A stretch of 64,000 bases of DNA, taken from a virus. How positions within the stretch are numbered: the first letter of the stretch is position 1; the number at the start of each line of letters is the position of its first letter. Shown one piece after another: positions 478 through 47,254 of the stretch. Below the pieces are notes generated by a model. It worked only from the letters and a program-made list of their open reading frames with translations, was not told where the DNA came from and searched no databases. The DNA lies in the IMG/VR virus record IMGVR_UViG_3300027977_000008, positions 32,001 to 96,000 of that record, one strand, 5' to 3'. The translations under genes were made by a program, and so were the position numbers.

Positions 478-3099
478 ATGTCTGCTCCGGTAGTTCAGTT
501 TAAAAGAGGTTTATTTAGTAATTTACCTGGTCTGAGAATAGGTGAACCCGGTTTCACTACTGACAAATATGATCTTTATGTGGGTATTGATAGTACAACA
601 GAAAATAATAAATTCTTTGGTTCTCATCGTTATTGGACAAAGGAAACTACAACAGTAGGTTCTGGTGTAAATCTTGTTGAAGGTACTAATAATGGTGCCA
701 ATTCAATTACATTAAAAGCACCTGCATCCATTGGATCAGATGTAACTTATACATTTCCAAGTTCTGCTGTAGATCAAGGATATCTAAGAACAAACTCCAG
801 TGGAACTCTTACTTGGGAAAGTGGAGTAAACACTTCTGGCGTTTCTACAATTGCATTTCTACAGGCAACCACTACAAACGTTTCCGCTGCAGCTACTGTA
901 GGGACTGATCTATCGGTAAATAGAGACCTAACAGTATCTGGTGGCATTACAGGAAACTTAAATGCTACTGGAGTATCAACAGCATCTCATTTACAATCAA
1001 CTACAGTTAATGTTTCCGCTGCAGCTACTGTAGGGACTGATCTATCGGTAAATAGAGACCTAACAGTATCTGGTGGCATTACAGGAAACTTAAATGCTAC
1101 TGGAGTATCAACTGCTTCCTTCTTACAAGCAACCACTACAAACGTTTCCGCTGCAGCTACTGTAGGGACTGATCTATCGGTAAATAGAAACCTAACAGTA
1201 TTAGGTGGCATTACAGGAAACTTAAATGCTACTGGAGTATCAACTGCTTCCTTCTTACAAGCAACCACAGTTAATGCAACTGGCATTATTACAGCATCAT
1301 CTTTCCGTGGTGCAGATTTCCGTGATACTGATGGGTCATTAGTTCCTCTAGTTGGTGTTCAAACTGGTGGTGGTCATAACGGTCTTGTAACAGCATTTAA
1401 GTTTACTGGAACAGGTTTAGAAAATTATCAAGTTATCAATGAAGTTGCAGTCATTACAATATCTGGTGTTGCAGCATCTACATATACAACTTCAGAACTT
1501 ATAAGTGCAACACAAAATCAGGCAGCATTTACAGTTTCTGCTGGTTATCAAGAAGGATTTGTTGATGTATATTTAAATGGTCTAAGACTAGTAACTAATA
1601 CGGACTATACAGCAACTGATGGATCACTTGTAAATTTAACAACAGGTGTTAATGCAGGTGATGAACTAGAAATTGTTACCTTCAAATCACTTGGTGATGT
1701 TGTTGCAGTCCAAAACTTTAAGACTGCTGGAAATATCCTAATGACAGGATTTTCTACCTCAACTAAGGTATTTGAAGCTTTAGGTGGAGCAAAACTTGCT
1801 GGAATTACAACTACTTCACAACTTACAGCAACCACTACAAACGTTTCCGCTGCAGCTACTGTAGGGACTGATCTATCGGTAAATAGAAACCTAACAGTAT
1901 CTGGTGGCATTACTGGTGCAGTAAATAACGCTGGTGTTGGTACTGTAGCATTTCTACAGGCAACCACTGCAAACGTTTCCGCTGCAGCTACTGTAGGGAC
2001 TGATCTATCGGTAAATAGAGACCTAACAGTATCTGGTGGCATTACAGGTAATATTAATGCCTCTGGTGTTTCTACAATCACTCAAATTCAAGCAACTACA
2101 GTAAACGCTGTGGGTGTTATTACTGCATCATCTTTCAGTGGTTCTGGTGCTGGTATTTCATCCAATACCATTCCAATTCTTGCCCTTGATATTGCTGGAG
2201 GCACTGCGCTTTCATCTTTAACACAGAATGATTTATTAATTATTGCAGATGAAGGTACTGGCAATATTAGAAAAATTACTGCGGATCAAATGTCGCAGTA
2301 TGTTCTTGGTGGCGCTGGTGGTGCTACATTACCAGCGTTAAAAATCACAGGTCTTTCAACTTTTGTTGGTAACGTTAGTGCTGAAGAAAACTTAACGGTT
2401 GCTGGTGGTATTACTGGTAGATTAAATTCTGTTGGTGTTTCTACAATTTCGTTCTTACAATCAACTACAGTAAATATTTCTGCTGGTGCAACTGTAGGTG
2501 GAACTCTAAATGTAAGTACTGGTGCAAATATCACTGGTGGCGAAACAACGCTATCATCGGCAACAGTTAGTGATTTAACTTCAGGTCGTGTTGTTATTGC
2601 TGGTGCTGCAGGTGCTCTGACAGATAGTACAAATCTAACCTATAGTAATAATGGTTTGATTGTTGGTTCTGGCGGTGCAAATATTACTGGTATTTCTACA
2701 TTCTCAAGTAACGTTATTATTGGTGGTGATTTGGTTGTAAACGGAACAACAACACAAATCAATACTGTACAAACCACAGTAGAAGATACTTTACTTGAAC
2801 TTCAAATGGTTGATGGATCTGCTCCATCTTCTGACACCAACAAAGATGTTGGTTTAATCATGAATTACTATGATACCCAAGCAAGAAAAGCTGCTTTCTT
2901 CTGGGATGATAGTGCATCATTATTTGTCCTTGCAGCAACCGTTTCAGAAAGTAGTGGTGTTGTTACACCATCAACATATGGTGGATTACAAATCGGTTCT
3001 CTTTATGTAAATGACTGTGCAGGTGCTTCTCAAGTAATTTCTTGCAGTGGAACTACAAGATCTCTTGAGAACATCTCAATAGATGGTGGTTCATTCTAA
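478..3099 (+). CDS. Tail fibre / long fibre-like structural protein
   Basis: 873 aa, G/T/S/A/V-rich; N-terminal VQFKRG..GEPGFTTD motif; 44-aa repeats; C-terminal IDGGSF; CTAAATA late promoter upstream. Confidence 0.75.
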   Translation: MSAPVVQFKRGLFSNLPGLRIGEPGFTTDKYDLYVGIDSTTENNKFFGSHRYWTKETTTVGSGVNLVEGTNNGANSITLKAPASIGSDVTYTFPSSAVDQGYLRTNSSGTLTWESGVNTSGVSTIAFLQATTTNVSAAATVGTDLSVNRDLTVSGGITGNLNATGVSTASHLQSTTVNVSAAATVGTDLSVNRDLTVSGGITGNLNATGVSTASFLQATTTNVSAAATVGTDLSVNRNLTVLGGITGNLNATGVSTASFLQATTVNATGIITASSFRGADFRDTDGSLVPLVGVQTGGGHNGLVTAFKFTGTGLENYQVINEVAVITISGVAASTYTTSELISATQNQAAFTVSAGYQEGFVDVYLNGLRLVTNTDYTATDGSLVNLTTGVNAGDELEIVTFKSLGDVVAVQNFKTAGNILMTGFSTSTKVFEALGGAKLAGITTTSQLTATTTNVSAAATVGTDLSVNRNLTVSGGITGAVNNAGVGTVAFLQATTANVSAAATVGTDLSVNRDLTVSGGITGNINASGVSTITQIQATTVNAVGVITASSFSGSGAGISSNTIPILALDIAGGTALSSLTQNDLLIIADEGTGNIRKITADQMSQYVLGGAGGATLPALKITGLSTFVGNVSAEENLTVAGGITGRLNSVGVSTISFLQSTTVNISAGATVGGTLNVSTGANITGGETTLSSATVSDLTSGRVVIAGAAGALTDSTNLTYSNNGLIVGSGGANITGISTFSSNVIIGGDLVVNGTTTQINTVQTTVEDTLLELQMVDGSAPSSDTNKDVGLIMNYYDTQARKAAFFWDDSASLFVLAATVSESSGVVTPSTYGGLQIGSLYVNDCAGASQVISCSGTTRSLENISIDGGSF
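864..1272 (+). repeat. Three tandem near-identical 132-bp (44-aa) repeats in the fibre gene
   Basis: GTTTCCGCTGCAGCTACTGTAGGGACTGATCTATCGG recurs at 880, 1012 and 1144. Confidence 0.9.
1828..2050 (+). repeat. Two further copies of the 132-bp fibre repeat
   Basis: Same core at 1843 and 1975. Confidence 0.9.
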
Positions 3100-3122
3100 A
3101 TCTAAATAAAATCCAATAAATA

Positions 3123-3150
3123 GGGGAAAGTTTAAAACTTCCCCTTTTTT
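3123..3150 (+). terminator. Rho-independent terminator
   Basis: GGGGAAAGTTT...AACTTCCCC followed by a T-run. Confidence 0.75.
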
Positions 3151-3156
3151 ATTGCT

Positions 3157-3342
3157 ATGAATGAACAAGAACTAAAGTCATTAATTAATGTGTATCAAAG
3201 AAGATTGAATGAAGCAAATGCACAATCTATTGCGTTTGAAGTAAGAACATTAATTCAACAAGAACTGATCAATGACTTACAACGACAATTAGAAGAAGCA
3301 CCAAAAAGGAGTACAAAAAAAGTTGATACTGCTGAATTTTAA
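3157..3342 (+). CDS. Small coiled-coil hypothetical protein (possible fibre chaperone)
   Basis: 61 aa heptad-rich ORF directly after the fibre gene. Confidence 0.6.
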   Translation: MNEQELKSLINVYQRRLNEANAQSIAFEVRTLIQQELINDLQRQLEEAPKRSTKKVDTAEF

Positions 3343-3489
3343 ATAAAAAATATCAACCTAAATAATACCAACTTAGAGACAACATTCAATCTAAACAATC
3401 ATTCGTAAAGAGAGTATATACTATTTCTGACGGCGATTATATGAATGGAAAAAAGTCTCTGCTTTATAGCAGATTTTTTATTTTTGTAA

Positions 3490-12058: not shown

Positions 12059-12066
12059 TATAAATA
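12059..12066 (+). promoter_or_regulatory. T4-type late promoter
   Basis: TATAAATA upstream of gp18. Confidence 0.8.
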
Positions 12067-14961: not shown

Positions 14962-14989
14962 TAAATAGTCAAAACAGTTTATTATATTG

Positions 14990-16636
14990 ATGGCGAAACT
15001 TTTTGGTTTTTCAATTGACGATCAGGAAAATAAGTCTAAAGGCATAGTCAGTCCAGTTCCTCCAAACAATGAGGATGGATCTGACTATTATCTTTCTTCA
15101 GGTTTCTATGGACAATATGTAGATATTGAAGGTGTCTTTAGAACAGAATTTGATATTGTTAAAAAATATCGTGATATGTCATTGCATCCAGAATGCGATA
15201 CTGCAATTGAACATGTTGTAAATGAAGCAATTGTTTCAGATTTAAATGATAGTCCTGTTGAAATTGATTTAGATAATCTTCAAATCGGTGCTTCACTCAA
15301 AAAAGTAATTAGACAAGAGTTCAAGTACGTAAAAGATTTACTTGAATTTGATAAAAAATCACACGAAATTTTTCGCAACTGGTATGTTGATGGTAAAATT
15401 CATTATCACAAAGTAATTGATTTAGAAAAACCTGATGAAGGTATCAAAGAAGTAAGATATATTGATGCTTTAAAGATAAAATTTATGCGAGTTCGTCCCA
15501 ATGATAAAAAAGCATTGCCAGCAAGACCTTATAGTGAAGATGTAACAACTACTAAAGATGCTGATATAGTAGAATTTTATACATATTATCCAGAAGGTGT
15601 TGCCCAACAATATGGATCAATTACCGGAAAGGGTATAAAAATTGCAAAAGATGCAATTACACATGTAACTTCAGGACTTGTAGATAGAAATAAACATTTA
15701 ACACTATCATATTTACATAAAGCAATTAAATCTCTCAATCAACTTCGCATGATTGAAGATAGTCTTGTAATTTATAGATTGTCTCGTGCTCCAGAACGTC
15801 GTATTTTTTATATTGATGTTGGCAATTTACCAAAAGTAAAAGCAGAACAATATCTTCGTGATGTTATGAGCCGTTATCGTAACAAACTTGTTTACGATGC
15901 AAACACTGGTGAAATTAAAGATGATAAAAAGCATATGTCCATGCTAGAAGATTTCTGGCTACCTCGTCGTGAAGGTGGACGTGGAACAGAAATTACTACG
16001 CTTCCTGGTGGACAAAATCTTGGTGAACTTACTGACGTTGATTATTTTCAAAAAAAACTTTATAGATCTTTAAATGTTCCTGATAGTAGAATTGGATCTG
16101 ATAGTGGTTTCAATCTAGGACGTTCATCAGAAATTCTTCGTGATGAATTGATGTTTAGTAAGTTTGTAGGTCGTTTAAGAAAACGTTTTAGTGCATTATT
16201 CTTAGATCTTCTTAAAACACAACTTATTCTAAAAAATATTGTAACTCCAGAAGATTGGGAGGTAATGGCAGAACATATTCAATTTGATTATATTTACGAC
16301 AATCATTTTGCCGAATTAAAAAATACAGAATTAATGAATGAACGTCTCAATCTTATGGTTGCTATTGAACCATATATTGGAACTTATTATTCTAGGGATT
16401 ATGTAAAACGTAAGGTTCTTCGTCAAACTGATGAAGAAATTATAGAAATGGAAGGAGAGATGGAAAATGAAAATCAAATAGGTATTGGAATTCCATTAGA
16501 AACTCAAAATACAATTATGCAAGGTCAAATGCAAAATGATCTTGGTATGAAACAAATGGAACCAAATCTAGATAACAAGAAAGACGGTGGATCAACTAAA
16601 GCACCGTCAATAAATATCAAAAAAGCTAAGATATAA
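14990..16636 (+). CDS. gp20: Portal protein gp20
   Basis: YRLSRAPERRIFYIDVGNLP, EDFWLPRREGGRGTEI; ATG at 14990. Confidence 0.96.
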   Translation: MAKLFGFSIDDQENKSKGIVSPVPPNNEDGSDYYLSSGFYGQYVDIEGVFRTEFDIVKKYRDMSLHPECDTAIEHVVNEAIVSDLNDSPVEIDLDNLQIGASLKKVIRQEFKYVKDLLEFDKKSHEIFRNWYVDGKIHYHKVIDLEKPDEGIKEVRYIDALKIKFMRVRPNDKKALPARPYSEDVTTTKDADIVEFYTYYPEGVAQQYGSITGKGIKIAKDAITHVTSGLVDRNKHLTLSYLHKAIKSLNQLRMIEDSLVIYRLSRAPERRIFYIDVGNLPKVKAEQYLRDVMSRYRNKLVYDANTGEIKDDKKHMSMLEDFWLPRREGGRGTEITTLPGGQNLGELTDVDYFQKKLYRSLNVPDSRIGSDSGFNLGRSSEILRDELMFSKFVGRLRKRFSALFLDLLKTQLILKNIVTPEDWEVMAEHIQFDYIYDNHFAELKNTELMNERLNLMVAIEPYIGTYYSRDYVKRKVLRQTDEEIIEMEGEMENENQIGIGIPLETQNTIMQGQMQNDLGMKQMEPNLDNKKDGGSTKAPSINIKKAKI

Positions 16637-16853: not shown

Positions 16854-17416
16854 GCGCATCTCAACCATTAAAGTTATATCAAACTGTTGGAAAGTTATCT
16901 GCCGCTAATGCAAGTTCAGTAACTTCAAATCCATTTATTATTAGAACTGGTACAATTTTATCAGTAGCTTCGACAACAAGAGGTGGTGGTAGTATTGGAA
17001 TTTGCAATACAACAACAGATGCTGGAATTGGATCTATTTTTGTAAACAGAGAAGATTCAATTCTTTATCGTTATGGACATCCAGCACAATCGACAGTTAT
17101 TGGCATAACTACTGGAGCATCAACAGTTCTAACATTAGATCATCCAGATACTAAATTGAGAGTTGGTGATTATATTCAACTAGTAGGCGCTGGATCTACA
17201 TATATAACATCACTTTTACATAAACAAATCACTGCAATTTCAAGTCCGCAACAGTGGAATAACTACACAATGGCGGTTACAGTGAATGCAAATACAAGTT
17301 CTGGTCATCATGCGTTTGTTGGTTTTGCAACTGCAGCAAAATCAGTAGTTTTTGTTCTTGCACCAGAAAATGTTTCTGGATGTGATATGTTCATCCACGA
17401 GGTTCAAATAGCATGA
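16850..17416 (+). CDS. Hypothetical structural protein
   Basis: 188 aa beta-rich ORF coupled to gp21. Confidence 0.6.
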   Translation: MSASQPLKLYQTVGKLSAANASSVTSNPFIIRTGTILSVASTTRGGGSIGICNTTTDAGIGSIFVNREDSILYRYGHPAQSTVIGITTGASTVLTLDHPDTKLRVGDYIQLVGAGSTYITSLLHKQITAISSPQQWNNYTMAVTVNANTSSGHHAFVGFATAAKSVVFVLAPENVSGCDMFIHEVQIA

Positions 17417-18060
17417 AATTAATCTCCGAAGAAATCGAAGCAGTAGAAGTTATTACCGAAGAAAAAAATGGTAAGAAAATTCTTTACATTCAAGGTCCAT
17501 TCCTTCAAGCTGAAGTAGTTAATCGCAACAAACGTTGCTATCCACTTCAGATAATGATGAATGAAGTAAAGAGATATACTGAATCCTTTATTAATAAAGG
17601 TCGTGCTCTTGGAGAACTTGGACATCCTGATGGTCCACAAATTAATCTTGATCGTGTATCACATAAAATTGTTGCACTAACACAAGAAGGAAATAATTTT
17701 GTTGGTAAAGCACAAATCCTGAGTACACCAATGGGGAAGATTGCATCTTCACTTATTGGTGAGGGTGTAAAACTAGGAGTTTCTTCTAGAGGAATGGGAT
17801 CCATTTATATGAAAAATGGTATCAATTACGTTGGTGAAGACTTTATGTTAGCGACTGCTGCTGACATTGTTTCAGATCCTTCTGCACCTGATGCATTTGT
17901 TAATGGTATTATGGAAGGTAAAGAATGGGTATGGGACGGTGGAGTATTACGTGAACTTCATTGTGAGCAAATAAAGAAGACAATAAATACTTTAGTAGAT
18001 CAGGACATTTTAGAGGCAAATAAACTACGTCTCTTTGCAAACTTCCTATCAAATCTATAA
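17413..18060 (+). CDS. gp21: Prohead protease gp21
   Basis: ALGELGHP, GVSSRGMGS, DIVSDPSAPDAFV. Confidence 0.95.
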   Translation: MKLISEEIEAVEVITEEKNGKKILYIQGPFLQAEVVNRNKRCYPLQIMMNEVKRYTESFINKGRALGELGHPDGPQINLDRVSHKIVALTQEGNNFVGKAQILSTPMGKIASSLIGEGVKLGVSSRGMGSIYMKNGINYVGEDFMLATAADIVSDPSAPDAFVNGIMEGKEWVWDGGVLRELHCEQIKKTINTLVDQDILEANKLRLFANFLSNL

Positions 18061-18105: not shown

Positions 18106-19203
18106 ATGACCGTTAATAACGAACTACATGAGATGGAAAACCAGGTAACCCGTGGTGCTAAGGCTGCTGATTCGATGCCAAAAGCGTCTAACTATGTACC
18201 TGATACTAGTTCTATCGAGAATCTTGGTGGTCCAACTCCGCAAAATTCAAGACCAACTGACGATAGCAATAAGATGAAAACACCTTCTGCATCTTTTGCT
18301 CAATCTGGTGATGTTCAATTCAAAGGTGCTTCTGGAAAAATACAACTACCTGGTCCTGCTGCTTTAAAAGCAACTGGATATGGTCGTGGTGCTAATGAGG
18401 AAGTTGAGCAAGAAGACGAAAGTGTAATTGCTGAAACCGAAGAATTAGAAGATCAAGTTGAAGAAGAAATTGAAGAGGAAGAAGAAGAAGAAGAACTAGA
18501 TCTTGAAGAGGATGTAAAAGCACTTCTAAAAGGCGAAGATCTTTCCGAAGAATTTCAAAATAAAGCAAAGACAGTTTTTGAAGCAGCTGTTCGTTCAAAA
18601 ATCGGTTCTCTGAAAGAAACTTTAGAAAACCGTTATGCTACAGTTCTTGTTGAGCAAGTAGAAGCAATCAAGAGCGAACTAACCGAGCGTGTTGATTCAT
18701 ATCTAGAGTATGTTGCTAATGAGTGGATCAACGAAAACGAATTACAAGTTGAGACAGGACTAAGAGGTGAACTCTCGGAGTCCTTTATGACTGGTCTTAA
18801 GAACCTTTTTGAAGAACATTATGTAGAAATCCCTGAAGATAAATATAATGTTCTTGAGGCTATGGTCGAGAAACTTGATGAAATGGAGACAAAACTCAAC
18901 GAACAGATCGACACCAATATTGCTCTAACCAAGCGTTTATCGGAATCTGTTTCTGACAACATCCTAGATGAAGTAAGTGGAGGTCTTGCTCTTTCCCAAA
19001 AGGAAAAACTAGCAAGTCTTGCTGAAGGTGTTGAGTTTGATAGTGAAGAACAATATCGTGAAAAACTTGCTACGCTACGTGAAGCATATTTTGCTTCTAA
19101 GCCTGTATTAAATTCACAAGAAGTCATTTCAGAGGATGCACTTGCTGATGATGTATCACCAGTAATGTCTGCATATCTCAATGCATTGACTAAGTTCAAC
19201 TAA
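18106..19203 (+). CDS. gp22: Prohead core scaffold gp22
   Basis: Acidic coiled coil; LSEEF..KA.TVFEAAV; YLEYV..EW; synteny. Confidence 0.92.
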   Translation: MTVNNELHEMENQVTRGAKAADSMPKASNYVPDTSSIENLGGPTPQNSRPTDDSNKMKTPSASFAQSGDVQFKGASGKIQLPGPAALKATGYGRGANEEVEQEDESVIAETEELEDQVEEEIEEEEEEEELDLEEDVKALLKGEDLSEEFQNKAKTVFEAAVRSKIGSLKETLENRYATVLVEQVEAIKSELTERVDSYLEYVANEWINENELQVETGLRGELSESFMTGLKNLFEEHYVEIPEDKYNVLEAMVEKLDEMETKLNEQIDTNIALTKRLSESVSDNILDEVSGGLALSQKEKLASLAEGVEFDSEEQYREKLATLREAYFASKPVLNSQEVISEDALADDVSPVMSAYLNALTKFN

Positions 19204-19259: not shown

Positions 19260-20663
19260 ATGTTCAATTCTGCTGCACTGCAGAAGAAGTGGGCTCCTCT
19301 TCTAGAGGCACAAGGTCTTGATTCAATCAAAGACAACCACAGAAGAGCAGTTACTGCCCAACTTCTTGAAAACCAAGAAAGATTTCTAAGAGAAGAGCGT
19401 GCTTTTCTAACTGAAGGACCTCCAACAATTAACACCGACCCTTCTGCAACAGGTAATGCAGGTTTCAGTGGTTCTGGTGCATCACCTGTTGCTGGTTTCG
19501 ATCCAGTTCTAATCTCATTGATTAGACGTGCAATGCCTAACTTGGTCGCCTATGACCTAGCAGGTGTTCAACCAATGAACGGTCCAACAGGTCTTATCTT
19601 TGCGATGAGAACCCGTTACGACAACCAGAACGGTACTGAAGCATTCTTCAACGAACCAGATTCTGCATTCTCTGCACAAAACTCTGCAGCAACTCTTACC
19701 CAAGGCGACTACACTGGTGGTTCCGATGATGGCACCAACGTTGGTTTTGGTACAACTGCACAGTCAGGCACCAATCCATCGATCCTAAATGGTGGCGTAA
19801 ATAATACCTACAACCTAGGTCAAGGTTTTAACACCCAATCACTAGAAACACTTGGTGATAATAGTGCTACTAACGACTTCCGCGAAATGGCTTTCTCTAT
19901 TGAGAAAGTTAGTGTTGCCGCAAAGTCAAGAGCACTTAAAGCTGAGTACTCGCTAGAACTAGCACAAGACCTTAAGGCAATCCACGGTCTTGATGCTGAA
20001 GCTGAACTAGCAAATATCCTCAGCACTGAAATTCTTGCTGAGATCAACCGTGAGATCATCCGTACAATCTACAAGGTTGCTAGAACAGGTGCTCAAACCA
20101 ACGTTGCAACCGCTGGTATATTTGACCTAGACGTTGATTCCAACGGTCGTTGGATGGTTGAGAAGTTCAAGGGACTAATGTTCCAACTTGAGCGTGATGC
20201 AAACGCTATTGCACAAGAAACTCGTAGAGGAAAGGGCAATATTATCCTTTGTTCTGCTGACGTTGCTTCTGCACTTGCTGCTGCTGGTCAACTGGATTAC
20301 ACTCCAGCACTTTCAGCAAACCTACAGGTTGACGACACTGGTAATACCTTCGCTGGTGTTCTAAACGGTCGCTTCAAGGTCTATATCGATCCATTCGCTG
20401 CAAACCTAACCGCAGATCAGTACTACGTCATGGGTTATAAGGGTTCAACTCCTTATGATGCAGGTCTATTCTATTGCCCATACGTTCCTCTTCAGATGGT
20501 TCGTGCAGTTGGTCAGGATAACTTCCAGCCTAAGATTGGATTTAAGACCCGCTACGGCATGGTCGCAAACCCATTCGCTGAAGGAACTGGTGCTGGCGCA
20601 GGTCGCATTGCTGAGAACACCAACCGTTACTACAGAAGAGTAAAGGTACAAAACCTAATGTGA
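19260..20663 (+). CDS. gp23: Major capsid protein gp23
   Basis: KWAPLL, GVQPM.GPTGLIFAMR, ELAQDLKAIHGLDAE, FQPKIGFKTRYG. Confidence 0.97.
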   Translation: MFNSAALQKKWAPLLEAQGLDSIKDNHRRAVTAQLLENQERFLREERAFLTEGPPTINTDPSATGNAGFSGSGASPVAGFDPVLISLIRRAMPNLVAYDLAGVQPMNGPTGLIFAMRTRYDNQNGTEAFFNEPDSAFSAQNSAATLTQGDYTGGSDDGTNVGFGTTAQSGTNPSILNGGVNNTYNLGQGFNTQSLETLGDNSATNDFREMAFSIEKVSVAAKSRALKAEYSLELAQDLKAIHGLDAEAELANILSTEILAEINREIIRTIYKVARTGAQTNVATAGIFDLDVDSNGRWMVEKFKGLMFQLERDANAIAQETRRGKGNIILCSADVASALAAAGQLDYTPALSANLQVDDTGNTFAGVLNGRFKVYIDPFAANLTADQYYVMGYKGSTPYDAGLFYCPYVPLQMVRAVGQDNFQPKIGFKTRYGMVANPFAEGTGAGAGRIAENTNRYYRRVKVQNLM

Positions 20664-20747: not shown

Positions 20748-21314
20748 TTGTCAAATAATCCGTGTACCCTACATCAAGTTTCAAATAAAAACTTTCTGTC
20801 ATTGGGTGGATTCAAACTTATTATCAATAGGTGTCCAAAGGTAGATTTTCTTTGCAACAAAGCAAATTTACCAGGTCTGACATTGGGTAGTTCAACGCAA
20901 TCAACATATCTAAAAGACATTCCTGTTCCAGGAGACAAACTTAGATATGAAGATCTGTCAGTCAATTTTATTGTAGATGAGGAATTGGAAAATTACCATC
21001 AAATCTACCAGTGGATGACATCATTAGGATATCCACAATCAATTGCACAATACTCTGAATTACAAACAAAAAACAGATTTTATCCAAATACAGATGCAAA
21101 TGATCCGTACAGCGAAAGGTCTGATGCTACATTATTAATTTTGAATAGCAATTATCAAACTGCTGGAAAGGTAGTCTTTAAAGATATATTTCCAATATTT
21201 CTTTCAGGAATTCCTTTCGATGCAACGTTGCAAGAACAGCAATACTACACTGCAACTTGCACATTCCGTTATACTATTTTTGATTTGATTGACATTGATG
21301 GAAAAAAAGTTTAG
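20748..21314 (+). CDS. gp3: Tail completion protein gp3
   Basis: NFLS..GF, ANLPG..LG, PGDKL.Y..L...FIVDE.LENY. Confidence 0.85.
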   Translation: MSNNPCTLHQVSNKNFLSLGGFKLIINRCPKVDFLCNKANLPGLTLGSSTQSTYLKDIPVPGDKLRYEDLSVNFIVDEELENYHQIYQWMTSLGYPQSIAQYSELQTKNRFYPNTDANDPYSERSDATLLILNSNYQTAGKVVFKDIFPIFLSGIPFDATLQEQQYYTATCTFRYTIFDLIDIDGKKV

Positions 21315-31899: not shown

Positions 31900-32203
31900 T
31901 TTGTATGGATGTTCATTTGTTCTTTTGGACGATGAACAATACCTTATAGAATTATTAAAAAATGCTGCAATAGCAAGTGGTGCTACTGTACTTCAAACTA
32001 TTTCAAAAAAGTTTGATCCACAAGGTGTCACTGTCATTTCTTTACTTGCGGAAAGTCATATTAGCATTCACACTTGGCCAGAAGAAGGTAGAGCGGCAGT
32101 AGATGTTTATACCTGTGGAAATTCTAATCCAAAAATAAGTTGCGATATTATTATTCATCAATTATACTCACAATCACACACACTATCTTATATTGAAAGA
32201 TGA
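31877..32203 (+). CDS. speD: S-adenosylmethionine decarboxylase proenzyme
   Basis: F.PQGVT, LAE-SHISIHTWPE (pyruvoyl site), DVYTCG. Confidence 0.92.
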   Translation: MGKHYLLNLYGCSFVLLDDEQYLIELLKNAAIASGATVLQTISKKFDPQGVTVISLLAESHISIHTWPEEGRAAVDVYTCGNSNPKISCDIIIHQLYSQSHTLSYIER

Positions 32204-44330: not shown

Positions 44331-44338
44331 TATAAATA
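44331..44338 (+). promoter_or_regulatory. T4-type late promoter
   Basis: TATAAATA just after a GCCACAAC-TTCG-GTTGTGGT hairpin terminator. Confidence 0.75.
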
Positions 44339-44369: not shown

Positions 44370-45218
44370 ATGGCAATTTGGGGAATTTCAACTCAAGGTG
44401 AATATGCTGCTAATTATTATAATGTTCCTAAGCATCTAATTGATGTGGATAGAAATAGAACACCTCATAATTGTTTTGCAGATGAAAGAGGATGGGTATA
44501 TAGACATTATGGTGATAAAATATATTCTGGACTTTCTACTTCATATTATGATGAAGTTTTAGTTCATGTTTCGGGACTTTGCACTACAAGAAATCCAAAC
44601 GGAAGCAGAATTACTGGACTAGGTGCTGCTACACCGGTTGCTGTCTTCTTTGAAGATCCAAACGTTGCATCACCAATCAGCATCGGTGCTGGTGGCACTG
44701 ATAGAATTGTTAGAGCTGGTGGAGCATCAACTACAGGAATTAGTACTGGATTTGTCCATGTTGTTTGGAATGAACCAGTATTCTGTTCTGCTGGTGCTAC
44801 TGTAAACATTAGAGCAACAACTGGTGCAGGAACTTCGTTTGCTGTTGGTACTGCTGTATCGATGACACCAAACGTTGAAATTCCAGTTTATTTCGGAACT
44901 CGTACATCAGGTTCTGATACTGGTTATGGTTATACCATGATGAAGAACTTCAATGGTCAAATTGGTAATATAATTGCTTTCAGATTTACAACCAATCTAG
45001 GTATTGGAACTATTTTAAACATCCATGTTGCAGGTAACGTGGTAGGAACAATCACAGACTTCCAAAACACAACTGCAGAAAAAACTTTCACTTCTAACAT
45101 GATTAGAAATGTTGGCGGTGCAGGAACATTCTTTGGCGGTGGTATTGCTGGAGTTAGCACATATCCTAATGCTGTAAGAGGCGTAGGCATCGGAACAACC
45201 ACACTAACACTTAAATAA
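44370..45218 (+). CDS. Virion structural protein
   Basis: MAIWG start, GWV motif, G/T-rich; late promoter. Confidence 0.65.
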   Translation: MAIWGISTQGEYAANYYNVPKHLIDVDRNRTPHNCFADERGWVYRHYGDKIYSGLSTSYYDEVLVHVSGLCTTRNPNGSRITGLGAATPVAVFFEDPNVASPISIGAGGTDRIVRAGGASTTGISTGFVHVVWNEPVFCSAGATVNIRATTGAGTSFAVGTAVSMTPNVEIPVYFGTRTSGSDTGYGYTMMKNFNGQIGNIIAFRFTTNLGIGTILNIHVAGNVVGTITDFQNTTAEKTFTSNMIRNVGGAGTFFGGGIAGVSTYPNAVRGVGIGTTTLTLK

Positions 45219-45224
45219 TTTTAG

Positions 45225-45596
45225 ATGATATTTGATGAATTGAATGAAGATAACCATCTTCTATTCGCCATAAAGCATTATGAAAACCCTCATACTTCCA
45301 CTATGGAAGAGTTTGAAGAGGATTTGAAACGCTTCAAATATATCAAGAGATTGCTAAAGAAATATCTTGAGCAGAATGAACTGAGGCACCATTTGATTTT
45401 AAACCACTTGATAATTTGCTTCAATGTTTTTGGTGAAGCAACGGTTCCTCTTTTGTTTTTTAAAATTGAAAAGGAATACTGGTCTATTATAAAAACATTT
45501 TTAATTTTTTTAAATAAAATCCCAGATTACCCTAAATCAGGATTAGATGATATTTTAATTCATGATGAATGTCACAGAATACTTAGTTCAATCTAA
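45225..45596 (+). CDS. Conserved T4-like hypothetical protein
   Basis: FAIKHY.NP, EF.EDLKRFKY, LILNH.I...NVFG. Confidence 0.75.
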   Translation: MIFDELNEDNHLLFAIKHYENPHTSTMEEFEEDLKRFKYIKRLLKKYLEQNELRHHLILNHLIICFNVFGEATVPLLFFKIEKEYWSIIKTFLIFLNKIPDYPKSGLDDILIHDECHRILSSI

Positions 45597-45826
45597 TGGA
45601 TTTTTCTAAATTGAACCGTATCATAAATATTATTAGAGAAGATATTATGTCTACCGATCCTGGTGGCACTAGCAAACCAGGATTTAGTTCATCTGCGGAA
45701 AAACCTGTTGCAGGTTTCGATCCTGTTATGGATTTGCGACGTAAGTATGGTAAAAAATTGAATCTTTTTTATCGCAAACGTCTAGGAGAACTAAGAGATG
45801 TTAACAAACAACGACACAAAAACTAG
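45596..45826 (+). CDS. Small late protein carrying a copy of the gp23 N-arm motif
   Basis: STDPGGTSKPGFSSSAEKPVAGFDPVM aligns without gaps to gp23. Confidence 0.7.
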   Translation: MDFSKLNRIINIIREDIMSTDPGGTSKPGFSSSAEKPVAGFDPVMDLRRKYGKKLNLFYRKRLGELRDVNKQRHKN

Positions 45827-46238
45827 AATAGCTGTCTTGGAACAAAAAAGTATAACCCAAGAAAGATTGATTGAAAAAGTTGAAGATGCCATCCAAGTAA
45901 TGAAGGATGTTGTTGAAAACGTTTCAAAAATGCTTGCCGTTCATGATGAAAGAATAGAGCAGGCATCAAAGAGTGATAGTATTATTATTTCTATGCTAAA
46001 AGAAATGAAGCATGATCTTGACGCAGAAGATATTGATCTAAGTGCTAGAATTGATGAGATTAGTATAAAGGTTGAAGAGATCAAAAAAATTAAATGGATG
46101 ACCATTGGTATCGGAGTTTTTGGTGCTGTATTGGTTGGAGCAATTTCAACTGTTGCTTCTGGGTGGTTGACACCAGGCGAATTGGAGTATAGAATGGAAC
46201 CTAGGTATGTTCCAAATCCTGAAAACATTAAAAAATGA
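45798..46238 (+). CDS. Coiled-coil protein with C-terminal transmembrane helix
   Basis: MLAVHDERI; hydrophobic WMTIGIGVFGAVLVGAI. Confidence 0.65.
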   Translation: MLTNNDTKTRIAVLEQKSITQERLIEKVEDAIQVMKDVVENVSKMLAVHDERIEQASKSDSIIISMLKEMKHDLDAEDIDLSARIDEISIKVEEIKKIKWMTIGIGVFGAVLVGAISTVASGWLTPGELEYRMEPRYVPNPENIKK

Positions 46239-47254
46239 GTTATGTTGATGTCAAGTACATCTGTTTGATTTCTTCAAGATTACAAAAATTTACTAAGAAA
46301 AAGGAAAATTTATACAACTTTAGATGTCCTTATTGTGGAGATTCTCAAAGGAATACAAATAAGACAAGGGGGTATTTCTATCAGTGTAAATCGGATTACA
46401 ACTTTAAGTGTCATAATTGTGGAGTTTCAAAATCTTTTACATATTTTCTAAAAGATATTGATCAGTCTTTATACGACCAATATCTTTTAGAAAGATATAA
46501 AGAAGGATTAACTGGCAGATCCACTAACACACCAGAACCAAAGTTTGAGTTTAAACAACCAGTCTTTATAAAGAAGACAAAAGTAAATCTACCACAAGCA
46601 TCCGAAAATCCAAGATCAAGTGATTACCTAAAAAAAAGAAAAATCAATCCTACAAAATTTTTCTACGCAGAAAAATTTAAAGAGTTTACAAATAAACTCA
46701 AACACACATTTAATGATATTCGTAATGATCATGCGAGAATTATCATTCCCCTTTATAATGAAGAAAAGCAACTTATAGGTTTTCAGGGTAGAAGTCTTGA
46801 TCCTTGGGCACAACCCAAATATCTTACTGTTATGCTTGATGAAGATGCTCCCAAAGCTTATGGACTTGATACTGTAAATAAAGATGAGACAGTTTATATT
46901 ACGGAAGGTCCATTTGACAGCACGTTTATCGAAAATTCAATTGCAATGTGTGGAGCTGATGCTAATCCTGTATTGTGGGGTATCAGTGATTGTGTTTACA
47001 TATATGATAACGAACCACGCAATACAGAAATTGTATCAAGAATTTCCCACACTATTGAAACTGGACAAAAGATTGTTATTTGGCCATCATCAATAAGTGA
47101 AAAGGACATAAACGATATGGTTCTGTCTGGACATAATATTCAAGACGTGGTAAAATTAAATACTTACTCAGGTCTAGAAGCAAAACTAAAATTCACTAAC
47201 TGGAAGAAGAATGAGCAACGGAATAACAGTCAAAAAACGAGACGGTTCTATTGA
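46235..47254 (+). CDS. gp61: DNA primase gp61
   Basis: FRCPYCGDS, CHNCG, TEGPFDS, DNEPRN. Confidence 0.95.
   Translation: MSYVDVKYICLISSRLQKFTKKKENLYNFRCPYCGDSQRNTNKTRGYFYQCKSDYNFKCHNCGVSKSFTYFLKDIDQSLYDQYLLERYKEGLTGRSTNTPEPKFEFKQPVFIKKTKVNLPQASENPRSSDYLKKRKINPTKFFYAEKFKEFTNKLKHTFNDIRNDHARIIIPLYNEEKQLIGFQGRSLDPWAQPKYLTVMLDEDAPKAYGLDTVNKDETVYITEGPFDSTFIENSIAMCGADANPVLWGISDCVYIYDNEPRNTEIVSRISHTIETGQKIVIWPSSISEKDINDMVLSGHNIQDVVKLNTYSGLEAKLKFTNWKKNEQRNNSQKTRRFY

Follow-up and report, generated by a model that had tools for sequence, protein, structure and literature searches.

A 76-aa ORF on the plus strand of a T4-like cyanophage genome encodes a free-standing copy of the N-terminal segment of the phage's own major capsid protein, gp23, placed behind a candidate prohead-protease site and ahead of a basic tail. 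The ORF lies at 45596..45826 of the window, i.e. the 64,000-nt stretch analysed here, which covers positions 32,001 to 96,000 of the 171,943-bp IMG/VR record IMGVR_UViG_3300027977_000008. Judged by synteny with Sinorhizobium phage phiM7 and by architecture, the ORF appears to be the cyanophage member of the gene-61.1 group, and we regard it as roughly an even bet that the product of this group member is a peptide that is processed in the head and acts through the interface of the gp23 N-fist.

The 76-aa ORF contains a copy of the gp23 N-fist

The ORF (phrog_3286) begins with an amphipathic 15-residue leader, MDFSKLNRIINIIRE (45596..45640, plus strand), ending in I-R-E (residues 13-15, 45632-45640, plus strand), which is a hydrophobic-x-Glu motif and a candidate cleavage site for gp21. 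Residues 19-45 (45650..45730, plus strand) copy the N-terminal segment of mature gp23 and read (DIM)STDPGGTSKPGFSSSAEKPVAGFDPVM; residues 46-76 (45731..45823, plus strand) form a tail with 12 Lys/Arg vs 3 Asp/Glu and a conserved KKLN(L/M)FYR. gp23 (PF07068) is encoded at 19260..20663 on the same strand; its maturation-type site FLTE52 (19404-19415, plus strand) aligns with T4 FLTE65 and is followed by the copied N-fist region (19416-19511, plus strand). ORF residues 18-45 match gp23 residues 57-84 without gaps, with 16 of 27-28 residues identical (BLASTP E=1e-9), and the core of the alignment pairs ORF residues 19-45 with gp23 residues 58-84 (19431-19511). The gap from I-R-E to the ORF segment is 4 residues, and that from FLTE52 to the gp23 counterpart is 5-6 residues. 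Thus, the mimicry, the site ahead of it and the basic tail behind it, all of which had been proposed in a first-pass annotation of this DNA, were borne out.

A gp23 query against the whole 171,943-bp record and a six-frame motif scan of the record both returned gp23 and the 76-aa ORF and no other place. Because only these two places carry the segment, we conclude that the similarity between them is real and specific. Neither the leader nor the copied segment was found a further time in the 172-kb record and, in agreement with the earlier remark that gp24 is not seen in this window, neither a gp24-like protein nor a full-length gp23 paralogue was found in the whole record.

In T4, the N-fist comprises residues 66-91 of mature gp23 (gp23*) and is followed by the N-arm (PMC7136217). 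Because FLTE52 aligns with T4 FLTE65, the copied region corresponds to residues ~70-95 of mature T4 gp23. In T4 terms, the copied part comprises the N-fist and the first residues of the arm (~66-97) rather than the whole arm; the initial description of an N-arm mimic was therefore right about a gp23 N-terminal copy and too wide about its extent. The ORF segment corresponds to the N-fist/N-arm of mature T4 gp23 (66-105; PDB 5VF3, 7VS5, 6UZC), starting at the maturation site; however, the N-fist of gp23 is joined to an HK97-fold body, whereas the copy in the ORF is free-standing. A capsid-fold domain (PF07068, HK97 fold) is absent from the ORF, and the 28 gp23-like residues lie upstream of the Pfam domain in gp23.

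Homologues of the ORF numbered 36 in metagenomes (47-84% identity), and R14, E15, G29, S31, P37, G40 and D42 are invariant among the homologues. Within the leader, 26 homologues showed no variation at R14 and E15 and very little at I12/I13. dN/dS relative to IMG/VR relatives is 0.1-0.5 and, on the same contigs, the ORF is ~70% identical while the neighbouring DUF7207 protein is 91% identical, showing that the ORF evolves faster. We conclude that the ORF is a real, conserved gene on which purifying selection acts. Among the PHROGs, the ORF matched phrog_3286 and phrog_696 only; Pfam gave no match for the ORF, nor for the T4, phiM7 and phT4A forms described below. Megablast returned no near-identical phage record. 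Matches in the PDB were limited to designed TIM barrel repeats and were rejected as spurious.

The ORF is located upstream of the primase gene in a cluster headed by a late-promoter-like box

As the first-pass annotation had stated, the ORF is part of a cluster headed by TATAAATA. This T4-type late-promoter-like box (44331-44338, plus strand) precedes by 32 nt a series of tightly packed genes that all point the same way, of which the ORF is the third. In order, the genes encode a 282-aa protein (44370..45218, plus strand) homologous to SSM1_195 of S-SM1 (T4-GC 425, E=3e-15), a DUF7207 protein (T4-GC 198; 45225..45596, plus strand) whose stop codon overlaps the ATG of the small ORF, the ORF itself, a DUF7201 protein that has a coiled coil and, at its C terminus, a hydrophobic segment (T4-GC 201; 45798..46238, plus strand) and the DNA primase gp61 (46235..47254, plus strand). 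DUF7207 and DUF7201 served as the upstream and downstream markers of the slot occupied by the ORF.

The TATAAATA box occurs at 12059, 16632, 18063, 20719, 44331 and 56340 of the window, in all six cases on the plus strand, and at least three boxes closely precede the starts of ORFs (gp22, the ORF at 20748 and the ORF at 44370). This count is not above chance in AT-rich DNA, and only the placement is suggestive. In T4, no TATAAATA box was found near 61.1.

Head genes of the window, all on the plus strand, include those for the portal protein gp20 (14987..16636), the prohead protease gp21 (Peptidase_S77; 17413..18060), which is expected to cut after hydrophobic-x-Glu, and the scaffolding core protein gp22 (T4_CASP; 18106..19203). 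gp22 has a long acidic stretch; both the N-region of gp23 and the basic tail of the ORF are candidates for interacting with it.

Most proteins in the same slot of other cyanomyophages resemble gp23 in register with its cleavage site

DUF7207, which anchored the survey of the slot, is present in 489 phage records, and the slot was examined in 22 isolate genomes. Nearly all 22 have a gene for a protein of 60-290 aa between DUF7207 and DUF7201/primase; earlier clustering had scattered these genes over T4-GCs 426, 657, 844, 1228 and 1363. Most slot proteins start with a gp23-like segment, e.g. MMTAGTGGFSGSAAAKGPVAGFDPVM, followed by a Lys/Arg run. In slot proteins with a leader, the hydrophobic-x-Glu motif coincides with the position of the gp23 cleavage site: P-TIM40 has MINE↓DAPTMSAG... 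in the slot protein vs VLTE↓AAPTMSAG... in gp23, and S-SSM4 has VNE↓SPTMSVG... vs LTE↓APTMAAG... (arrows, candidate cuts). In leaderless forms, Met1 is 1-3 residues from the cleavage position. In P-TIM40, S-SSM4, T4, phT4A and KVP40, the match is ungapped over at least 28 residues from the Glu of the cleavage motif. Through leader cleavage in one case and translation start in the other, the slot product would begin where mature gp23 begins.

Mimicry is weak or absent in the slot gene of ~5 of 24 cyanophages (S-PM2, S-H9-1, P-SSM5, ACG-2014f and Bellamy). Moreover, in the clade of P-RSM1, ACG-2014a and Syn30, gp23 is altered (TTGYTG...) and the slot gene did not follow. The slot gene of P-SSM5 (1872-2174 of the retrieved piece) has a leader of the type of the window's clade, MDINKAIEIIRE↓S, without the N-fist copy, and the remainder of the protein comprises a part rich in Cys and Lys and a repeat of Gly and Asn. 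The P-RSM1 slot gene (NC_021071, reverse strand; 1842-2407 of the retrieved piece) has no RefSeq annotation and is divided between two reading frames, with the N-fist copy in 1842-2042 and the PSRLFQYKV domain in 1961-2407; the split could come from a frameshift, from an error in sequencing or from disruption of the gene.

Long slot forms, as in S-SM1 and S-ShM2, have an extra PSRLFQYKV domain and a K/Q-rich coil, and the slot gene of S-B68 is annotated as a GC119-like structural protein. Long slot proteins are labelled 'major head protein' by RefSeq and phrog_696 (2510-3370, 1867-2565, 1902-2270 and 1806-2354 in the coordinates of the retrieved pieces), and only ~28 N-terminal residues of these proteins are gp23-like. 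They contain no capsid-fold domain; the label is a misnomer, and this mis-annotation of the cyanophage forms is hereby removed.

T4 gene 61.1 and its relatives have the same position and architecture

In Sinorhizobium phage phiM7, the genes for DUF7207, gp353, DUF7201 and primase follow each other as in the window. As DUF7207 and DUF7201 flank the slot in cyanophages as well as in phiM7, the four-gene block predates these families. phiM7 gp353 ends ...VEVE↓GSAVPSTNTGNIPDTVAKKSPVLKRKEK, and phiM7 gp23 reads LLQE↓AAPTTNTGNIATYDPVLISLVRR. In hundreds of Straboviridae, a match to the N-domain of gp353 is encoded shortly before the primase gene, and the annotation of Apostate names its pre-primase protein 61.1. 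The 61.1-type gene is located directly upstream of the primase gene in T4, KVP40, Apostate, 44RR2.8t and JK45; in phT4A, two small ORFs separate the two genes. The phT4A protein ends RMLE↓DMVAGDSGGDTEKIASGVTTGAVTNIGPKVLGVTRAGKRKKK and its cognate gp23 reads FLAE↓AEIAGDHGYDATKIASGNSSGAITNIGPAVIGMVRR. While the phiM7, phT4A and KVP40 forms have an N-domain of ~100 aa ahead of the copy, T4 gene 61.1 encodes a short form (54 aa, NP_049649, 'hypothetical'), MKTFKEFIKE↓DMVAGDSGGNPENISIGTTSGAVVNKGPEQIPKKKKEESKEKEE, which starts with a leader, I-K-E and a copy of residues 66-97 of mature gp23. In BLASTP comparisons with their own gp23, the 61.1-type proteins gave E values of 5e-12 (44RR2.8t), 2e-11 (phT4A), 6e-9 (T4), 1e-8 (KVP40), 3e-6 (Apostate), 3e-5 (JK45) and 3e-3 (phiM7).

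The pattern MKT[YF][QK]EFI occurs four times in T4, i.e. in 61.1, ipII, ipIII and ipI. In the leader of the internal proteins, residues 4 and 7 function in targeting and residues 8 and 10 in processing (Kuhn and Thomas review, PMC9026906); all four are retained in gp61.1. Because 61.1 and ipI-III have this pattern in common, we conclude that gp61.1 carries the capsid targeting sequence of the internal proteins. In T4 gp23 itself (NC_000866), residues 58-65 (AFGSFLTE), which precede the cut, resemble the targeting sequence F-x-x-F-[IL]-x-E.

T4 61.1 (phrog_1823) and the long forms of Straboviridae (phrog_2086) share with the cyanophage gene the position upstream of the primase as well as the architecture of a leader or domain, a hydrophobic-x-Glu, a copy of the cognate mature gp23 and a Lys-rich tail. 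However, the T4-type and cyanophage proteins have no significant sequence or profile match. The ORF had no detectable homology to phrog_1823 or phrog_2086, and an hhalign profile comparison was not significant (probability 0.3%). Moreover, the leader of T4 61.1 is the internal-protein targeting sequence, while cyanophages have another leader, a helix of 15 residues, and DUF7201 lies between the ORF and the primase in cyanophages. Because each protein resembles its own gp23, the tie between the cyanophage and T4 genes consists of synteny and architecture. Locally, the cyanophage ORF and the T4-type forms have in common the residues I-(K/R)-E↓D-(M/I), which gp23 lacks; similarly, the hydrophobic-I-(K/R)-E-D of the cyanophage leader recurs in FIKE↓D of T4 gp61.1.

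These relatives qualify the first-pass annotation. The ORF copies the phage's own gp23, but genes of this kind are not peculiar to this phage and occur across the superfamily, including T4 61.1. The lack of gp24 had been offered as a possible reason for the gene; however, a 61.1-type gene coexists with gp24 in T4 and in phT4A (for gp24 in T4, see PMC9546572), so that a missing gp24 does not explain it.

The gene spans coliphages, marine cyanophages and rhizobiophages and remains 'hypothetical' even though T4 assembly is well studied. 61.1 has been listed among conserved ORFs with no function given (Nolan et al. 2006), and the literature that could be searched, i.e. that outside subscription-only T4 papers, contained no functional study of 61.1 or gp61.1. 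At least five PHROGs (3286, 696, 1823, 2086 and 18642) and T4-GCs 426, 657, 844, 1228 and 1363 merge into one positional family.

In the PDB, which holds no chain of gp61.1, the best match of this protein is T4 gp23, with gp61.1 residues 3-39 aligned to gp23 residues 58-94. This likeness spans the cleavage site, as might be expected if the product were a pseudo-substrate or competitor for gp21 or for the core sites of gp23 that tunes the timing of cleavage or expansion, or head size. Substitutions A66D, A94V and G97S in this region of gp23 alter T4 head length (PMC9546572), in line with such a function. On the other hand, protease recognition rarely needs ~30 residues past the cut, and the basic tail would be left unexplained; we consider this explanation improbable.

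The copied segment co-varies with the cognate gp23 at the protein level

We paired the slot gene and gp23 from 24 genomes. The mean Smith-Waterman score of cognate pairs was 73.1 vs 57.8 +/- 2.3 for shuffled pairings (permutation p<5e-5). Among 12 cyanophage representatives less than 80% identical to each other, the sum of the two cognate scores exceeded that of the two swapped scores (S_ii+S_jj > S_ij+S_ji) in 61 of 66 pairs; because correction for phylogeny is incomplete in this test, these pairs represent a smaller number of independent events. Covariation with the cognate gp23, which the first-pass annotation had named as a test of its proposal, was thus detected. In S-T4, where the slot protein reads GGGAMYRGSGREDSGSPTAGYDP and its own gp23 GGGAYYRGSGQTDSGAPTGGFDP, the cognate pair scored 108, compared to 54 for the best non-cognate pair. 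In the window's clade, the slot protein and gp23 agree in the length between TDP and PVAG, which is either 14 or 16 residues. Copied segments gave mean scores of 57-78 against gp23 of the same family and of 22-30 across families. In total, these scores argue for concerted evolution of the copied segment and gp23 at the level of families.

At the DNA level, the same codon is used at 120 of 299 identical aligned residues, while codon usage predicts 114.7 +/- 8.3 (z=0.6). In S-T4, six of the 19 identical residues share a codon vs 6.9 expected. For the window pair, 56 of 84 nucleotides are identical over the segment and 10 of the 16 identical residues share a codon vs 6.0 expected, which is slightly high and not convincingly so. 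Recent gene conversion or re-duplication was ruled out, as same-codon use is as expected and nucleotide identity is only 52-75%. Because synonymous sites are saturated, we conclude that the likeness between the ORF and gp23 is kept by selection at the protein level. With tracking of gp23 in protein sequence and no similarity in DNA, this pair offers a clean case from nature of a protein segment co-evolving with its free-standing copy.

The same data speak to the idea that the ORF is a functionless, decaying remnant of a partial gp23 duplication. The similarity spans only a 28-aa segment and the protein is predicted to be unstructured (pLDDT under 50), as a remnant might be. However, the gene is kept in its slot across three phage families, it has a dN/dS of 0.1-0.5 and invariant leader residues, and the likeness has persisted although synonymous sites are saturated. 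We consider a remnant extremely unlikely.

A segment that evolves fast and tracks gp23 could also be a decoy, i.e. a free peptide that occupies or misleads a host sensor of the gp23 N terminus. In a T4 omics study, the 61.1 RNA was classed as early, which would suit a decoy, and the protein was not detected in the T4 infection proteome. However, coliphages, cyanophages and rhizobiophages, whose hosts are very different, all carry the gene, and the targeting-type leader, the cleavage site and presence in virions point into the head. Moreover, the known trigger in the T4 capsid, the Gol peptide for Lit, is located directly behind the copied part. We therefore consider a decoy very unlikely.

A slot protein is present in virions of S-SM1

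The slot gene of S-SM1 encodes SSM1_197 (T4-GC 426, 'structural protein'; RefSeq 'major head protein', phrog_696), a long form of 182 aa that begins MTMMSAGTGGFSSSADATGPNAGYDPVLNFRKK. It shares with the 76-aa ORF the slot, the N-fist copy (MTMMSAGTGGFSSSADATGPNAGYDPVL) and a basic stretch; unlike the ORF, it has no leader and continues into an additional C-terminal domain and a K/Q-rich coil, and it does not have a capsid fold. In purified S-SM1 virions, T4-GC 426 was detected with 17 counts, compared to 18 for gp20 and 119 for gp23 (Sullivan 2010, PMC3037559, Table S8). S-SM1 virions also contained GC 425, to which the 282-aa protein of the window is homologous, and the T4-GC 426 orthologue was not detected in Syn9 virions (PMC3037559). 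By inference, the presence of the long form in virions together with a gp21 gene in the window supports that the 76-aa product may be packaged and cleaved.

In the unexpanded T4 head, residues 66-105 of mature gp23 are disordered and probably located inside, contacting the core (Fang et al. 2022, PMC9546572). After expansion, the same residues form the arm and N-fist and make inter-capsomer and Soc contacts (PMC9546572). In the T4 capsid and portal-vertex map papers (PMC9546572, PMC7136217), no density was assigned to a peptide of this kind.

The probable core contact of the gp23 N-region in T4 proheads and the detection of the S-SM1 long form in virions would both fit a docking signal, i.e. 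a segment that binds the scaffolding core and loads an effector, the basic tail or, in long forms, the extra domain, for injection with the DNA as for the internal proteins of T4. Similarly, the copy occurs with unrelated partners, i.e. none in the 76-aa ORF, the PSRLFQYKV domain with the K/Q coil in long forms, a GC119-like protein in S-B68, and the ~100-aa N-domain in phiM7-type forms. Against this, T4 gp61.1 has a canonical targeting leader yet keeps the copy, the T4 and window forms are a copy plus a short charged tail, so that the copy is in the mature product, and the segment was not found in any other gene of this genome. We therefore regard a mere docking signal as unlikely, although a better prospect than a pseudo-substrate. 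Because T4 already has a targeting leader, and the minimal unit is site, copy and tail, the copy probably belongs to the working product.

A possible mechanism and its versions

The preferred explanation, a head-processed peptide that acts through the N-fist's interface, would operate as follows. The 76-aa product would enter the prohead along with gp23 and the scaffolding core, and gp21 would cut it after Glu15, as it would cut gp23 after Glu52. The cut would leave a peptide of ~61 residues with a free N terminus resembling that of mature gp23. This peptide would act via whatever surface the N-fist of gp23 uses, while the basic tail would hold it to DNA or to the acidic scaffold.

Within this scheme, the peptide may act as a spare fist on the lattice, as a link that joins the shell to the acidic scaffold, or as a competitor that times maturation. 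As to its role, a spare N-fist on the capsid lattice is one tentative possibility, an adaptor or docking signal between shell and scaffold a slightly more doubtful one, and some other role has a little under half of our expectation. A broader version, in which all T4-like phages release, by protease, a peptide that docks on the capsid lattice where the fist of a neighbouring capsomer is missing while its basic tail grips DNA, seems to us rather improbable; the vacant sites could be those of the five hexamers around the portal. If true, the lattice would be completed by a separately encoded fragment that must co-evolve with the capsid protein. If the product is a head component, then T4-like capsids have a constituent that their parts list lacks, and the role of the gp23 N-region in head size, expansion and portal-vertex sealing could be tested via a small, dispensable-looking gene.

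Relation to the internal proteins of T4

The ORF resembles T4 IPI, IPII and IPIII in the short propeptide ending in (L/I)-x-Glu, the basic mature part, a putative head association and variable 'cargo'; its 15-residue leader meets the pattern of a 10-19-residue propeptide ending in (L/I)-x-Glu, which is a pattern match only. However, IPI-III have no gp23 copy, and the cyanophage leader is unlike the targeting sequence beyond its last four residues. Moreover, in T4-type internal proteins the leader is common to several head proteins of a phage, whereas the leader of the ORF had no counterpart at the N terminus of any other ORF in the 172-kb record.

At 111370-113000 of the record, 15.4 kb beyond the end of the window, are two adjacent late genes (ATGs at 111397 and 112289). 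Both lie behind TATAAATA and encode an identical 21-residue leader, MSPQELRALQEAYLSVYELDE, which ends in L-D-E and differs from the leader of the 76-aa ORF. Beyond this leader, the two genes diverge into charged proteins, and they are candidates for targeting-leader internal proteins of this phage.
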